This document shows positions 2,541 to 51,456 of a stretch of 64,000 nucleotides of DNA, piece after piece. A program made the position numbers and the translations under genes. Every line of letters begins with the position of its first letter. The first letter of the stretch is position 1. Below the pieces are notes generated by a model. The model was not told the origin of the DNA and searched no databases. It saw only the letters and a list, made by a program, of their open reading frames with translations. Origin of the DNA: Candidatus Iainarchaeum sp. (GTDB lineage Archaea; Iainarchaeota; Iainarchaeia; Iainarchaeales; GCA-2688035); assembly GCA_017610205.1 (NCBI GenBank), contig JAFCCL010000006.1:32001-96000 (forward strand), given 5' to 3'.

Positions 2541-3020
2541 ATGAAAAGATACTTTCCAACAGGGAAAAGAGTGCGACGCTTTAGAATTGTGGAGCTTAAA
2601 CCTTCTGCGGATGTAGGAAAAGTACAAGAAAAACTTACTGGTTTAAAACCAAAACCAATTGTGTGGGAAAAATATCCTGCTTCCAGAGAAGCCCAGGGAT
2701 TGATTGCTTCAATTGGCAGGCATATTGGAAATCTTGCTTCTAACGCTGCCGAAGCCGACCTTGTTAAATTGCGTAAGGTTCCTGAATCTGAACAGGTTGG
2801 AGTTGCGCTTAGATTGGAAAAGATGGTGAATGGACTTTGGCCAAAGATAGTTGCTGAAACAGTTCCGGGAAACATAAATGCATATGCAAAGGGCATTGTG
2901 TTTTCTTACGTTATTGCAGGTACACTCTATGAAAAGGCAAGATTGTATCCTAAGGCGGCTGAAATGCTTGACAAAATAAATACTATTAATAGAATTTTGA
3001 GAGAGGCGCAAAACCCTTAA
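2541..3020 (+). CDS. orphan protein with basic N-terminus
   Basis: ORF starting MKRYFPTGKRVRRFR; convergent 4-bp overlap with the next gene. Confidence 0.6.
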   Translation: MKRYFPTGKRVRRFRIVELKPSADVGKVQEKLTGLKPKPIVWEKYPASREAQGLIASIGRHIGNLASNAAEADLVKLRKVPESEQVGVALRLEKMVNGLWPKIVAETVPGNINAYAKGIVFSYVIAGTLYEKARLYPKAAEMLDKINTINRILREAQNP

Positions 3021-4261
3021 AGCTTTTTCACAGGGTTCTTTTTTGTTATCCTAATTCTGTGAATTTTTGGACCTTTTACCTGAATTGCTTTTAGTGTAAA
3101 GTTGCCGACAGAAATTGTTTCATTTTGTTTTGGAATTCTGTCAAGTTTTTCAATCATAAAACCGCTTATTGTGGAAAACTTTGTGCTTTTCCATTTTGTT
3201 TTAAACATTTGATTTATTTCGTTTAATGAAGCCTTTCCGTCTGCTTCAAAGACTCCTTTGCCTTCTTCAACCACTCTTGGAGCCTCGCTTTCGTCAACTA
3301 TTTCACCAACTATTTCTTCAAGCAAATCTTCCAAGGTTACTATTCCAAGCATGCCTCCATAGTCATCAACCACTACAGCCATGTTGTTTCTTGTTTGCCG
3401 GAATTCTGCCAAAAGCTTGTCAATTTTTTTGGTTTGGTGTACAAAAAGCACAGCCCTTGCAAGTTTGCTTACTTTTGTTGCGGTTTTTCCTTCAGCAAGA
3501 TAATTCCATGCGTCTTTTACATAAAATATTCCTTCAATTTCATCAAGGTCTTTTTTGTAAACAGGAAGTCTGCTAAAAGGAGTTTCTGCAAGCAATTCGT
3601 TCACATCCTCCAAAGTTGCATCTTTTGAAATTCCTTTCACTTCGCTTCTTGGAGTCATTACATCTTCCACGCTTATATCATTGAATTTGAATATTCTGTG
3701 AATCATTTGTTTTTCAGTTTCATGAATTGCTCCAACCTCTGCTCCCATTGTAACCATTGTTTTAATGTCCTGCTCTGTCATAGGCTGCTCTTCAACCTTT
3801 CCAATTATTCTTATAATTATTTTTGTAAATCCATTCAGGAACCAAATGATTGGGCTTAGAATAATACTAAGCCATTTAATTGGCTTTATTACAAAGAGTG
3901 AGATTGCTTCGCTGTGCTGCACTGCAAGGCTTTTTGGCGTAATTTCTCCAAGTACAAGAATCAAAAAGGTCATTATTCCAACAGAAATGCTTATTGCAAA
4001 GTTTGCAAACATCTGCAAGGCAACAGTTGTTGCAATTGCTGCAGCTGCAATGTTTACAACATTGTTGCCGATTAGAATTGTTGTAAGCATCTTCTGAGGA
4101 TTTGCCTTGAATTCCTCAACAAGGATTGCCGATTTGTTTCTTTTTTTTACAAGTTGCCTTATTTTAATTCTGTCAACTGCAATAAGTGCTGTTTCTGTTC
4201 CGGAAAAAAATCCACTTAATGCAAGCAAAATTGCAAGGGTTATTATGTCAAGTTCTAACAT
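3017..4261 (-). CDS. CNNM/hemolysin-family protein (DUF21 + CBS pair + CorC domain)
   Basis: SGFFSGTETAL, ILIGNNVVNI, GEITPKSLA, VMTPR, SRLPVY, VVDDYGG, EDLLEEIVGEI. Confidence 0.93.
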   Translation of the reverse strand: MLELDIITLAILLALSGFFSGTETALIAVDRIKIRQLVKKRNKSAILVEEFKANPQKMLTTILIGNNVVNIAAAAIATTVALQMFANFAISISVGIMTFLILVLGEITPKSLAVQHSEAISLFVIKPIKWLSIILSPIIWFLNGFTKIIIRIIGKVEEQPMTEQDIKTMVTMGAEVGAIHETEKQMIHRIFKFNDISVEDVMTPRSEVKGISKDATLEDVNELLAETPFSRLPVYKKDLDEIEGIFYVKDAWNYLAEGKTATKVSKLARAVLFVHQTKKIDKLLAEFRQTRNNMAVVVDDYGGMLGIVTLEDLLEEIVGEIVDESEAPRVVEEGKGVFEADGKASLNEINQMFKTKWKSTKFSTISGFMIEKLDRIPKQNETISVGNFTLKAIQVKGPKIHRIRITKKNPVKKL

Positions 4262-4299
4262 GCCAAGATTAACTCTTTTGCGGTTTTTAATTCTTGCTT

Positions 4300-5580
4300 T
4301 TACTTTTCTAAACGCCTTTTTCCCAAATAAACTGCCTTTTTTCCAAGTTCTTCCTCTATTCTGATAAGCTGGTTGTATTTTGCATTTCTTTCACTTCTTG
4401 CAGGGGCTCCAAGCTTGCTTTGCCCTGCATCAATTCCGACCAAGAAATCTGCAATAAAACTATCTTCTGTTTCACCGCTTCTGTGCGAAACAACAACTCC
4501 CCAGCCTGCTTTTTTGCTTTCTTTTGCGGCTTCAAGTGATTCTGAAATCGTTCCAATTTGGTTTATTTTAAGCAAAAGCGCATTGCAGCTTTTTTCTTCA
4601 ATTGCTTTTTCAATTTTTTTAGGATTTGTTACCAGCAAATCATCGCCAACAATTTGTACTTTGCTGCCAATTTTTGCAGTTAGTTCTTTCCAGCCCTGCC
4701 AGTCTTCTTCTGCCATTCCATCTTCCAAAGAATAAATGCTCCTATAAGTTCCTGTTAGTTCAGTGTAAAAATCAACAAGCTCGCCGGAAGAATATTCTTT
4801 TCCATAAAGTTTGTATTTTCCGTTTTCAAAAAATTCTGAGGATGCGCTGTCGATTGCAATGCTCATAATATCCTTATATCCTGCTTCTTCAATAGCTTTG
4901 CTTATCAAATCAAGCCTTTCCTGTGCACTGTTTACATTTGGGACAAAACCTCCTTCATCCCCCAAAAGCGTTGCCCCTGCTCCGAATTTTTTCTTAAGAA
5001 TTTTTTTTAGAGTATGATAAGTTTCAACCCCTGCCTTAAGCGCTTCACTGTAAGATACTGCGCCTGTGGCGGCAATCATTTGTTCCTGAATATCCTCTTC
5101 AAGCCCTGCATGCTTGCCTCCATTCATTACATTCATTTGCGGAACAGGCATTGTAACGCCCTTGTTTCCGCTTAATGAGGCGATGTATTCAAACAGATGC
5201 TGTCCTTTTGCAGCAGCCCCTGCCCTGCAGACAGCTATGCTTACGCCAAGAATTGCATTGACTCCCAATTTTTCCTTGTTTTCGGTTCCATCAAGTTTAA
5301 TCATTGCCTTGTCAATTTCTTCCTGTTTTGTGCAATCCATTCCCTCAATTAGTGGTGCAATTTTTTTGTTAACATTTGCAACTGCTTTAAGAACTCCTTT
5401 TCCGCCATAGGCGGTTTCGCCATCTCTTAATTCCAATGCCTCGTTTATTCCTGTGCTTGCTCCGCTTGGAACAATTCCACAAAACTGGCCTTGTTCTGTG
5501 TTTACATCTGCTTCAATAGTCGGGTTTCCCCTGCTGTCCAAAACCTGTCTTGCCCTGATTTTCCTGATTTTATTAGCCAT
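4300..5580 (-). CDS. eno: enolase
   Basis: LDSRGNPTIE, VPSGASTG, GDEGGF, VGDDL, LLKINQIGT, SHRSGETED; GGAGG upstream of start. Confidence 0.98.
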   Translation of the reverse strand: MANKIRKIRARQVLDSRGNPTIEADVNTEQGQFCGIVPSGASTGINEALELRDGETAYGGKGVLKAVANVNKKIAPLIEGMDCTKQEEIDKAMIKLDGTENKEKLGVNAILGVSIAVCRAGAAAKGQHLFEYIASLSGNKGVTMPVPQMNVMNGGKHAGLEEDIQEQMIAATGAVSYSEALKAGVETYHTLKKILKKKFGAGATLLGDEGGFVPNVNSAQERLDLISKAIEEAGYKDIMSIAIDSASSEFFENGKYKLYGKEYSSGELVDFYTELTGTYRSIYSLEDGMAEEDWQGWKELTAKIGSKVQIVGDDLLVTNPKKIEKAIEEKSCNALLLKINQIGTISESLEAAKESKKAGWGVVVSHRSGETEDSFIADFLVGIDAGQSKLGAPARSERNAKYNQLIRIEEELGKKAVYLGKRRLEK

Positions 5581-36582: not shown

Positions 36583-36748
36583 TAAATGCCTAATTTAGCC
36601 AGATAATACCTACCTTTAGGGCTGTTTTGAGAAATTTTACAAAATAGTGCATCAATTTTTACAATGGAAAGGCTTTAAAATCTGAATGTTTGATAAGATA
36701 TTTGCTTAATTTTTAATGCTAATTGGGAAAATTTGGGAGGCTATTAGT

Positions 36749-37168
36749 ATGACAGACAAACAAAATGACGAAAAAATATTGCCAGAAAATGGTGAAGAAA
36801 CACCAGGAACAGAGGAAAAAATTGTTAAGGAAGAGGCTGCTGAAGTTGAACGTGATGATTTGCCTTTCCCAAAAGCAACAATTGTTAACATGCTTAGAAA
36901 GCATTTAAGCTCTGGAAAGCAAATTAAGGGCCAGGTAAAGGATGAAATGAACCTTTGGCTTGGAAAAATGGTTGAAAGAATTGCCAAAAAAATGGACTCT
37001 CACCCTTATGCATATGTTGACGGCGGAATGCTAAGGGATGCAATAGAGCCATATGAAACAGTGCAGGAAATAGAGCTTGAAAAGGAAAGGATAGTAAAGC
37101 AGCTTGAAAGCATTAAGGCAGCTTGTGACATTCTGATAAGCGAAGTGGACAGGAAATTTAGAAAATAG
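36749..37168 (+). CDS. histone-fold (NF-YB-like) protein with acidic N-tail and C-terminal coiled coil
   Basis: DDLPFPKATIVNMLRKHL...V....L..A pattern. Confidence 0.7.
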   Translation: MTDKQNDEKILPENGEETPGTEEKIVKEEAAEVERDDLPFPKATIVNMLRKHLSSGKQIKGQVKDEMNLWLGKMVERIAKKMDSHPYAYVDGGMLRDAIEPYETVQEIELEKERIVKQLESIKAACDILISEVDRKFRK

Positions 37169-37171
37169 ACC

Positions 37172-37732
37172 TTATTCTTTTTCAATTGCCTTTGAATATA
37201 CCTCTGCGGTTCTTCTAAGGCCACTGAGAAAATTGTCTATTTTGCCGCTTTTTCTGAGGGCTGCATCAAAGCTAAGCAGGCCTGTCCTGCCCATCCCACT
37301 GGCAAAAGACTCAAAATTATTGGAAATCCCTTTTCCAAGTTGGAAGGCATCTACTCCAAGAGCAAACCTGTCCTTGTAAAAGATTCTTTTGACAAATTTG
37401 GCAGAGTCTGGTCCCAATTTCCTAAAAAGCAGGTTAACGCTTGTGCCAAGACCCATAAAGAAAAAGGACGTGTTGTTCTTTCCAAGCCCCATTGCAAACT
37501 TTACAGGCTGCCTGGCAATCAAAGCAATTATCAGCCCCTTTTGCCGCATTGAGTACTGCGTTGCCTTGTTTTGCTTTAAGGATTCGGCAAGAATGAATGC
37601 TTTTTCTTTTGTGGCAAGGTTTTCCCATTTGCCAGCCTTAAGATATAGCCTCCTTGTTTTAAGGCGCTTGAAGAAAAAGGCCTGAACTCCCCTTGTTCCA
37701 AGCACTCTTCTTTTTTGTTTTGGTTGATGCAT
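37172..37732 (-). CDS. orphan protein with basic N-terminus and FxxGxG repeats
   Basis: MHQPKQKRRVLGTRG; FAMGLG, FFMGLG, FALGV, FASGMG. Confidence 0.65.
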   Translation of the reverse strand: MHQPKQKRRVLGTRGVQAFFFKRLKTRRLYLKAGKWENLATKEKAFILAESLKQNKATQYSMRQKGLIIALIARQPVKFAMGLGKNNTSFFFMGLGTSVNLLFRKLGPDSAKFVKRIFYKDRFALGVDAFQLGKGISNNFESFASGMGRTGLLSFDAALRKSGKIDNFLSGLRRTAEVYSKAIEKE

Positions 37733-37804
37733 TCTTTATCACAATAAAATAAAACTTGTTTTTCTATTTATTTAAATCTTTTCTTCCAAAATTTCCACAA
37801 ACCT

Positions 37805-38713
37805 TTATTTTTTCGGTTGCCGCCAGTGAATTCCGCGCAAAGATAAGGAAAATCTTTTTATAATTGCTCCAGCATCTTTTTTGGAAAATGTTTTTCCTTT
37901 TGGCAAGCCTATGGCAAGCTTGAATTTTGGATTGTTCAAAAGCTTCAGCAATCCTGAATTAAGCAAACTTGAAACCAGCGAAGGACTTATTTCCATGATT
38001 TCGGCAATTGCCCTTGTAGGAAGAGATTGCTTTGAAAGAAACCTAAGCCTTAAAACTCTGGCAGTGCGCTTGTCAAGGTATTGGACAAACGCCTTTGAAA
38101 GGTATTCACGCAGGTCATTTGCCTCTGCACGCTTGAGTGGATTGGAATGCCCTGCCTTTCCTTCAATAAGGTCAAAAAGCTTGCTTCCTTTACCTTTTCC
38201 GGTTTCAACAAGTTTATCCCCTGAAAAAGGCCTTATTCCGCGATGTGCAGACCTTAGCCTTGAAATTAGGTTAATGGCAGAATCTCTTTCAGCAATTGTT
38301 TTTGATTCAAAAACTACTTTGTAAAGCCGTTCAATTCTTTTGTTTAATGCAACCTCGTTTGAAATTAATCTCAAAACCTCTTTTGAAAGAGCAATTACCG
38401 GAGCTTTTTGCTCAAGCATTGTAATGACTTCACCCTTTGCCCTTGAGTAAGCAAATGTATTAAATTTAATGCCTTGTGATGGCTCAAACCTTGTATAAGC
38501 ATCCATTACCCCAATAAAAGCCGCCTGTTTGAAATCATTTTTGGAAATACGCCCTGATTTTGCTACAGCATTATATTTAAAGAAAAGCCTGTTTGAAACA
38601 TTGTCTGCAATCTTGTAAGCCTTCTTTACAAATTTTACATCAAATGTCTTTTGAACTTTCTTTTTCCTTGGTTTTGGTTTTTTTTGTTCACTTGGTTTTT
38701 TTTGGCTCATCAT
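37805..38713 (-). CDS. sigma-70-family-like protein (regions 2 and 4)
   Basis: DFKQAAFIGVMDAYTRFEPSQGIKFNTFAYSRAKGEV; LDKRTARVLRLRF...RAIAEIMEISPSLVS...GLLKL. Confidence 0.8.
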   Translation of the reverse strand: MMSQKKPSEQKKPKPRKKKVQKTFDVKFVKKAYKIADNVSNRLFFKYNAVAKSGRISKNDFKQAAFIGVMDAYTRFEPSQGIKFNTFAYSRAKGEVITMLEQKAPVIALSKEVLRLISNEVALNKRIERLYKVVFESKTIAERDSAINLISRLRSAHRGIRPFSGDKLVETGKGKGSKLFDLIEGKAGHSNPLKRAEANDLREYLSKAFVQYLDKRTARVLRLRFLSKQSLPTRAIAEIMEISPSLVSSLLNSGLLKLLNNPKFKLAIGLPKGKTFSKKDAGAIIKRFSLSLRGIHWRQPKK

Positions 38714-38791
38714 TCTAAAGAATAATTCCTTTTTAAGGATTTATAATCCTTGCTGTTTCAGCAAAATTCCAAAATTTGCAATACCTGGTTA

Positions 38792-39349
38792 CTACCCCAA
38801 AATTGCATTAACTTTTGCTGCAATTGCCCCTTTTGGATTTCTGAGCAGGAATCCTTCAATTACTGAAAGATTGTGGCATTTTCTGTTGCAGGAAGCCTTT
38901 TCAAAGTCAATTATTACAGGCATTCCTTTTCTTACCAGAATGTTTTTGCCGCTTCCTGCAAGCTGACCGTGGTCCAGACCAATTTTGTCAAGGACCTTTG
39001 CCTGCCTTTGCAGCTCTTTGACAAAACGCTTTAGTCCTGTTTTTGAAGGGCCCGCAAAAATCCATTCTGAAAAGCACGAGCCTTCAATGAATTCCATTAA
39101 AACAATTCTTTTTTCAAGATCTGCATCAAATAATTTTGGGCCAATTCCAACACCGTTTGCCTTTTTCAAATTTTCAGATTCCCTTTCAGCCATTTTAAAT
39201 CGCGTACTGTCATGCCGTTCCATTTTGATTACAAAAAAAACTCCTTTTTTATTCCTTGCAAGAAAAAGGTGGCTGCTAAAGCCCCTGTCAATCTTTTTTT
39301 CAAAGAAAAGCTTTTTTTTGAGCAGGAATTCTTTCAAAGTTGAATGCAT
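38792..39349 (-). CDS. small archaeal Ser/Thr kinase (RIO/Bud32-like)
   Basis: VIKMER, ESENLKKAN..GIGPKL, MEFIEG, HGQL..KNILV, IIDFEKAS. Confidence 0.85.
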   Translation of the reverse strand: MHSTLKEFLLKKKLFFEKKIDRGFSSHLFLARNKKGVFFVIKMERHDSTRFKMAERESENLKKANGVGIGPKLFDADLEKRIVLMEFIEGSCFSEWIFAGPSKTGLKRFVKELQRQAKVLDKIGLDHGQLAGSGKNILVRKGMPVIIDFEKASCNRKCHNLSVIEGFLLRNPKGAIAAKVNAILG

Positions 39350-51382: not shown

Positions 51383-51456
51383 GGGTCCGTAGCTTAGTCT
51401 GGCAGAGCATTGGTCTTATACACCAAGGGTCAGGGGTTCAAATCCTCTCGGACCCA
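51383..51456 (+). tRNA. tRNA-Ile (anticodon UAU), no intron, CCA not encoded
   Basis: Acceptor GGGTCCG/CGGACCC plus A; D arm GCTT/GAGC; anticodon arm TTGGT-CTTATAC-ACCAA; T arm AGGGG-TTCAAAT-CCTCT. Confidence 0.93.

Follow-up and report, generated by a model that had tools for sequence, protein, structure and literature searches.

The stretch of DNA analysed here, referred to as the window throughout (64,000 nucleotides), is C10:32001-96000 of G000, a genome of Candidatus Iainarchaeum sp. of 1.37 Mb in 24 contigs, 92.3% complete and 0.62% contaminated. It carries a gene of the bacterial sigma-70 family, and that this is a real sigma-family gene within an archaeal chromosome we regard as close to certain. 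Its product is a genuine sigma-70-family protein of group-3 type with three domains, too diverged to be assigned to any bacterial subfamily. The gene occupies a slot whose accessory content varies between genomes, and it evolves several times faster than its neighbours yet stays intact and constrained. The best overall explanation, which we hold with about even confidence, is a strongly diverged resident gene, descended from group-3 (FliA/WhiG-like) sigma factors, accessory to the genome and acting in the archaeon as a transcription regulator. The position of the gene is as follows.

37805 to 38713, minus strand: sigma-70-family gene, 302 amino acids plus stop codon, identified from the open reading frame (ORF) list, Pfam, NCBIfam, the AlphaFold2 (AF2) model and Foldseek

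For family assignment, a combination of Pfam and NCBIfam models was used. Sigma70_r2 matched the window protein at residues 59-103 with 32.1 bits (gathering score 24), and Sigma70_r4 matched at residues 213-258 with 23.6 bits, just under its gathering score of 24.1. In a six-frame search of the genome the same gene gave 34.4 bits with Sigma70_r2 and 26.8 bits with Sigma70_r4, the latter above the cut-off. The NCBIfam model of the sigma-70 superfamily, TIGR02937, was passed over residues 56-260 (66.3 bits against a cut-off of 42.9). An initial annotation of this DNA had described a sigma-70-like factor with regions 2 and 4 and had set a Pfam search for both as a check; the description was borne out by all three models, with region 2 over threshold and region 4 over threshold in the six-frame search. 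At the subfamily level the top NCBIfam model was FliA/WhiG (TIGR02479), which gave 69.2 bits against a cut-off of 189.6. The SigF, SigB/F/G and WhiG models ranked next, each far below its own cut-off (for SigB/SigF/SigG, TIGR02980, 47.2 bits against 234). FliA/WhiG was also the top model for the relatives P0002, P0004 and L116 (86.5-108.1 bits), and a phmmer search of PDB sequences returned WhiG as the best match (6pfj, E 5.7e-9; 6pfv, 1.2e-8), followed by E. coli FliA (6pmi, 3.3e-6). In the protein atlas, the window protein falls among sigma clusters.

A structure was modelled with AF2 from a 13-row alignment (mean predicted local distance difference test score (pLDDT) 75.4; predicted template modelling score (pTM) 0.38). 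Confident helical blocks were formed by residues 26-103, 111-159 and 192-259, with two more helices within 262-293, giving the following parts from the N to the C terminus.

38639 to 38713, minus strand: Lys-rich N-terminal tail, residues 1-25, predicted to be disordered (pLDDT about 50 or lower)
38405 to 38638, minus strand: sigma domain 2, residues 26-103 (Sigma70_r2 match at 59-103; pLDDT 83-96)
38237 to 38383, minus strand: sigma domain 3-like helices, residues 111-159 (modelled as H111-118, H120-136 and H140-159)
38141 to 38233, minus strand: flexible linker carrying the subfamily motif GIRPxSG, residues 161-191 (pLDDT <50)
37937 to 38140, minus strand: sigma domain 4 helix-turn-helix (HTH), residues 192-259 (Sigma70_r4 at 213-258; pLDDT 84-94)
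37808 to 37936, minus strand: C-terminal extension, residues 260-302, Lys-rich (predicted helices H262-268 and H278-293)

Comparison of the model with the PDB by Foldseek gave 111 matches at E<=0.001. Among the matches listed, the top ones are sigma chains by description, including sigma-A, sigma-70, sigma-S, sigma-B and sigma-28, aligned over about 248 columns with probability 1.00, so that the sigma assignment of the initial annotation was matched at the level of structure as well. Template modelling scores were low (0.2-0.25), because the relative placement of the domains is uncertain or different, as the pTM indicates. The whole protein could be aligned to the FliA/WhiG and SigB/F/G models, which include region 3, and from its position the linker would correspond to sigma region 3.2. 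The Lys-rich ends that had been ascribed to this 302-residue protein were recovered in the translation, with 10 Lys in residues 1-24 and 9 in residues 260-302. The N-terminal tail is specific to the window copy; P0002, at 52% identity, has none, and P0003-P0008 have long N-terminal extensions instead.

Close relatives of the protein are few. With the sigma protein as query, matches were found in only 2 of 41 genomes (G000 itself and G002, of the same genus), and a word-index protein search with 2306 candidates recovered the window protein itself only. Against 1.84 billion representative sequences, phmmer gave 394 matches at E<=0.001, of which no more than 8 reached E<=1e-10. These comprised P0002 (270 amino acids, 52% identical), P0003-P0008 (28-32% identical, most with N-terminal extensions of 100-200 amino acids) and P0009 (258 amino acids, 30% identical), which sides with the bacterial-like matches in alignment A1. 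P0004 is apparently the sigma protein of G002 (a 456-residue NCBI record). Clusters of P0002-P0011 have one or two members each, and 1 of the 10 clusters looked up bears a name, FliA. One further locus, L116, was obtained by scanning metagenomes; no relative was found in two scans of genome contigs or in IMG/VR. A profile of the 8 closest sequences (the window protein and P0002-P0008, here called the subfamily), run against 215 genomes of the phylum, matched strongly only in G000 and G002, with the next best at 85 bits. Sigma70_r2 at large matched in 52 of the same 215 genomes (over the cut-off in 45) and in 14 of the 58 of high quality, the single-contig genomes G038 and G179 included.

Across the 8 subfamily members 14 columns are invariant. 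Half of these lie in region 2 (D60, Q63, G68, A72, P78, F84 and G94), and two more, S164 and G165, fall within the linker motif GIRPxSG. The D-x-x-Q...G...A pattern of the subfamily we take to resemble region 2.2 of E. coli sigma-70, which grips the beta-prime clamp helices. An extension of about 40 residues past region 4.2 is kept in the window protein and P0002-P0008 and is missing in the bacterial-like P0009-P0016 (alignment A1).

The genome in which the gene resides encodes archaeal transcription factors. TBP genes were found on C10, the sigma gene's own contig, and on C3, a TFB gene on C17, and a thermosome gene (598.7 bits) inside the window. The bacterial RpoB model was not passed (171.7 against 801 bits), and its signal came in two separate frames on C13, the pattern seen in archaea whose Rpo2 is split. 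There was one Rpb1_1 match, and the alpha C-terminal domain was not found in this 92%-complete genome. FlgM (PF04316), HATPase_c_2 (RsbW/SpoIIAB-type) and STAS were likewise not found in it; RsiG was not searched. With archaeal markers on the contig, and with profile and structural matches for the protein, the statement that a bacterial sigma-70-like factor is encoded in an archaeal chromosome stands. An artefact of assembly or binning, in which a bacterial fragment had been fused to archaeal DNA, would make the whole observation spurious, and we consider it extremely improbable; nothing was found in its favour. Archaeal genes tightly flank the sigma gene on a long contig that also bears TBP, the composition of the gene matches that of the genome (GC 0.376 and 0.377, respectively), and the element upstream of it is an archaeal-type TATA box. 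A RIO kinase gene followed by the sigma gene on the same strand recurs in G002 and in the short metagenome locus L116. A chimeric assembly, which the initial annotation had left as a concern, is very unlikely because the order of the two genes agrees across three independent assemblies.

The slot and its borders were defined by the following genes.

38792 to 39349, minus strand: RIO-type kinase gene, conserved left border of the slot (Pfam RIO1, 27.8 bits against 22)
37172 to 37732, minus strand: orphan 186-amino-acid ORF, in the slot alongside the sigma gene (from the ORF list)
36716 to 37168, plus strand: conserved 150-amino-acid gene, right border of the slot, 73-90% identical in five same-genus genomes; a histone fold is possible and unconfirmed

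The interval from the RIO gene to the 150-amino-acid gene was read directly in five same-genus genomes, where RIO orthologues were found at 63-76% identity in four and as a frameshifted copy in G003. In G002 the slot holds a 459-amino-acid sigma gene. It is empty in G004, with the border genes 41 bp apart, and in G001, where they abut. In G003 it is occupied by a 603-amino-acid pilin-like gene and a 190-amino-acid homologue of the orphan ORF, and in G005 by about 560 bp with a 120-amino-acid hydrophobic ORF. No sigma remnant was detected by tblastn with 9 sigma proteins at the G001, G003, G004 and G005 loci. Because the slot is empty or otherwise occupied in these relatives, the sigma gene is very probably accessory and dispensable within the genus.

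The initial annotation had placed the sigma gene between a histone-fold gene and an archaeal kinase. The kinase was confirmed by the RIO1 match, whereas on the opposite side the gene directly next to sigma is the orphan ORF. The histone fold of the 150-amino-acid protein is a lead only: the protein had no Pfam match at E<=0.1 and no meaningful match by phmmer against the PDB, and its AF2 model (pLDDT 49) was too poor for a structure search. The protein atlas gave it a score of 0.90 to clusters with CBFD_NFYB_HMF in 12-29% of their members.

The DNA signals about the sigma gene are listed below.

38739 to 38746, minus strand: TATA-like octamer TTATAAAT, 25 nucleotides upstream of the sigma ATG; putative promoter element
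38735 to 38751, no strand assigned: 17-bp perfect palindrome over the TATA box, unique in the genome; it may be due to chance
37784 to 37794, plus strand: exact 11-mer TTCCAAAATTT, copy 1, just 3' of the sigma stop codon
38767 to 38777, plus strand: exact 11-mer TTCCAAAATTT, copy 2, just 3' of the RIO stop codon

A TATA-like box had been noted before, and TTATAAAT fits that description; in L116, 15 bases of the octamer and its 5' flank are identical upstream of the homologous ATG, and the bases directly before the ATG are conserved as well. The sigma gene therefore appears, from these sequence features, to be transcribed from an archaeal TATA-type promoter of its own, with a leader that would be very short or absent. 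The palindrome was considered as an operator and rejected; although the genome has no second copy of it, L116 does not share its right arm.

The short flanking repeat of the initial annotation was also found, with exact copies of TTCCAAAATTT at 37784 and 38767 as the only two in the window, but the repeat is not striking statistically. In the genome (1.37 Mb) 12 exact copies of the 11-mer are present, and with one mismatch or none it was found 9 times in the window, where 15.35 occurrences are expected, and is thus not enriched. Each copy follows the stop codon of one of two co-oriented genes (RIO and sigma) within about 25 nucleotides, and the sigma copy of G002 has no such flanking repeat. 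The pair may be a shared 3'-end element, an insertion footprint (a target-site duplication was considered; the statistics are weak) or a product of chance.

A slot that is empty or differently filled from genome to genome, with an exact 11-mer on either side of the sigma gene, could also mean that the site is an insertion hot spot into which a mobile element of DPANN archaea, such as a virus or plasmid, brought the gene as cargo. The gene would then serve that element, or be left over from it, and would not serve the cell. The patchy occurrence of sigma-like genes in the phylum (52 of 215 genomes) and a match to the PHROGs sigma family phrog_351 (66.5 bits) are in keeping with this, as are two DPANN-virus genes annotated as rpoS in the excerpted text of a 2025 paper (PMC12647753). 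However, no integrase, capsid or other mobile gene was found nearby; the genes near the sigma gene encode a KaiC-type ATPase, the RIO-type kinase, a GH130 protein and an ABC-F type ATPase. The GC content of the sigma gene equals the genome mean, no relative was found in IMG/VR, and the 11-mer is neither enriched nor present at the G002 copy. The RIO-then-sigma position is moreover shared by three lineages whose copies are 30-54% identical, which fits old residence. On balance a mobile origin of this kind is rather doubtful.

As to the orphan ORF that shares the slot, it had no Pfam, PHROGs or PADLOC match. Matches to it were found in 5 of 215 phylum genomes, the sole strong one being that of G003 (46% identity), which lies in the same slot with no sigma gene. 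The ORF product is basic and nearly confined to this genus, and its GC content at third codon positions is 0.43, against 0.30-0.39 in neighbouring genes. A role as anti-sigma partner was considered and rejected, given that G003 has the ORF without a sigma gene and G002 a sigma gene without the ORF.

To gauge the rate of evolution, the gene was compared with its neighbours. Between G000 and G002 the sigma proteins are 30% identical, against 75% for RIO, 85% for the 150-amino-acid gene, 79% for KaiC (partial) and 93% for Rpo1N; between the window copy and L116 the values are 53-54% for sigma and 76% for RIO. Ratios of nonsynonymous to synonymous substitution rates (dN/dS) by a rough Nei-Gojobori (NG86) estimate were 0.40-0.42 for sigma, 0.14-0.17 for RIO and 0.11 for the 150-amino-acid gene, and these are indicative only, since dS (0.96-1.78) is at or near saturation. 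The sigma frames are intact and full-length in the window, G002, L116 and P0002-P0008. Rapid change can also be the mark of a relic without function, left from an ancient transfer from bacteria and drifting to loss, and three observations fit such a relic: the gene is lost or absent in close relatives, its protein divergence is the fastest in the neighbourhood, and its scores fall far under every subfamily cut-off. Against this stand the full-length frames, a dN/dS of about 0.4 and thus below 1, the concentration of conservation in region 2 and in the subfamily-specific C-terminal extension, and the conserved promoter. We consider decay of this sort improbable.

The role that we favour for the protein is that of an accessory transcription regulator working inside the archaeon, a proposal that we rate at even chances. 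The HTH of domain 4, domain 2 and the basic tails would bind DNA, and the conserved surface of region 2 may be kept for a coiled-coil partner, for example the clamp of the resident archaeal RNA polymerase. The protein would not be a classical sigma factor for a bacterial core enzyme, because G000 encodes no such core.

Several points weigh against this role. Expression, DNA binding and the partner of the protein are all predictions from sequence, and sigma factors that are not bound to core enzyme are generally poor DNA binders. The recognition helix of region 4.2 in the window protein and P0002 deviates from the consensus of the subfamily and of bacteria (alignments A1 and A4), and the ability of region 4 to read DNA is uncertain for that reason. 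The absence of the gene in relatives is drawn from genomes that are 79-88% complete, with the slot read directly in four. The near-saturated dS makes the dN/dS figures rough, and the low identity to the G002 copy could reflect replacement by a different copy in place of fast divergence of an orthologue.

A bolder form of the intracellular proposal is that region 2 docks on the clamp coiled-coil of the archaeal RNA polymerase and that the protein, with its C-terminal extension and basic tails, would serve as an alternative initiation or promoter-selectivity factor beside TBP and TFB. The archaeal clamp coiled-coil is homologous to the bacterial beta-prime clamp helices. We hold this form to be quite improbable; if true, it would mean that bacterial and archaeal modes of transcription initiation work together as a hybrid.

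The same conservation bears on a further possibility, namely that the protein works as a true sigma factor beyond the archaeon. In this case it would reach, or be employed in, a bacterial cell that is host or prey, and would redirect transcription there by acting on the bacterial RNA polymerase. Within the subfamily, conservation is highest in the segment of region 2 that binds the core, and the three-domain sigma architecture is kept, while the lack of a bacterial core enzyme in the genome means that any bacterial partner would be external. The N-terminus, however, is Lys-rich and polar in translation, with no hydrophobic signal-like stretch, and the gene has no linked genes for secretion or injection. 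When the neighbours of 47 sigma-bearing loci of the phylum were clustered (379 ORFs, many loci overlapping, about 1.5 kb of flank), no family was shared beyond close relatives. The gene is also dispensable within the genus, and known DPANN hosts are archaea according to the portion of PMC8204110 drawn on here. An effector role on a bacterial polymerase thus has no positive support, and we judge it a long shot.

A sigma-70-like gene in an archaeal chromosome is correct as an observation, but as a phenomenon it was already known. In contrast to the novelty implied by the initial annotation, sigma-70-class genes (fam00359) in DPANN, especially prevalent in Woesearchaeota, were reported in 2021 by Castelle et al. 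(PMC8204110), who, in the excerpted text of that paper, excluded mis-binning, detected no anti-sigma factors and did not settle the mechanism. As far as can be likened from the paper's description, the present gene resembles fam00359 in being of sigma-70 type on an archaeal DPANN contig beside archaeal genes, in a genome with TBP and TFB and with no FlgM, HATPase_c_2 or STAS found. On all points tested our results agree with that part of the paper. What is added is the exact variable slot, the linkage of RIO and sigma genes in three assemblies, the contrast in rate with the neighbours, and a small subfamily whose C-terminal extension is conserved (of 1.84 billion representatives, 8 matched at E<=1e-10).

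Among characterized sigma factors, the window protein is most like the FliA/WhiG (sigma-28) group-3 type, with which it shares the domain order 2-3-4, the lack of region 1.1, and the best subfamily and solved-structure matches. It differs in scoring under the TIGR02479 cut-off, in its extra N- and C-terminal tails and in its archaeal host, which has no detected FlgM and encodes no bacterial core enzyme. From the partner-switching sigma factors SigB/SigF/SigG it is set apart by a score under the TIGR02980 cut-off and by a genome in which neither HATPase_c_2 nor STAS was found. Phage sigma factors of phrog_351 are alike in being sigma-family proteins outside the core bacterial gene set, and the match covers residues 50-258; the context in the window is not viral and there is no IMG/VR relative, so that the match reflects general family likeness. 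PADLOC yielded no match to any defence system for the window protein, MzaA of the MZA anti-phage system included, and for the G002 relative only 30.3 bits over 65 residues with MzaA.

No functional study of DPANN sigma-like proteins was found in the literature searched; the role of such proteins in cells with archaeal RNA polymerase only is a question raised in 2021. The locus offers a clean test case, with a compact protein of 302 residues, three sigma domains, a conserved archaeal promoter of its own, a defined insertion slot with empty-site relatives, and a small subfamily whose conservation is centred on the region that grips the polymerase clamp in bacteria. If the region 2 surface binds the archaeal clamp, initiation factors would be functionally cross-compatible between domains; if it does not, these genes would add another class to the bacterial HTH regulators that archaea have borrowed.

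Other sigma-like genes were noted in the course of the survey. G000 has a second one, of ECF type, encoding 210 amino acids on C11 (locus L002, 1159-1791, minus strand), which scored 26.4 bits with Sigma70_r2 (over the cut-off) and 38.8 bits with TIGR02937 (under 42.9). It adjoins a small gene pair that is toxin-antitoxin-like by eye only. Frames of 209-214 amino acids with Sigma70_r2 matches, near in size to this gene, are present in G004 and G005 too. The top Sigma70_r2 score of the survey, 85.2 bits, belonged to a 468-amino-acid primary-type sigma with an acidic N-terminal region on G211:C75 (L014 / L059). That contig is only about 3.2 kb long, in a genome of 600 kb, and the gene may be bacterial contamination and not archaeal.

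In G003, the RIO orthologue at the slot (L056, G003:C69, 5174-5816) is broken into two overlapping frames, by a frameshift or a sequencing error. The same contig carries paralogues of 320 and 603 amino acids (1048-2010 and 2735-4546) with pilin-like hydrophobic N-termini and Cys/Asp-rich repeats, one of which takes the place in the slot that the sigma gene has in the window. The two TBP genes of G000 are distinct and have both repeats each (C3:131404-131901 and C10:110825-111346). The sole tRNA gene of the window, at 51383-51456 on the plus strand and confirmed by Rfam, encodes tRNA-Ile with the anticodon TAT (UAU), which is unusual in archaea, where AUA is mostly decoded by a modified CAU tRNA.

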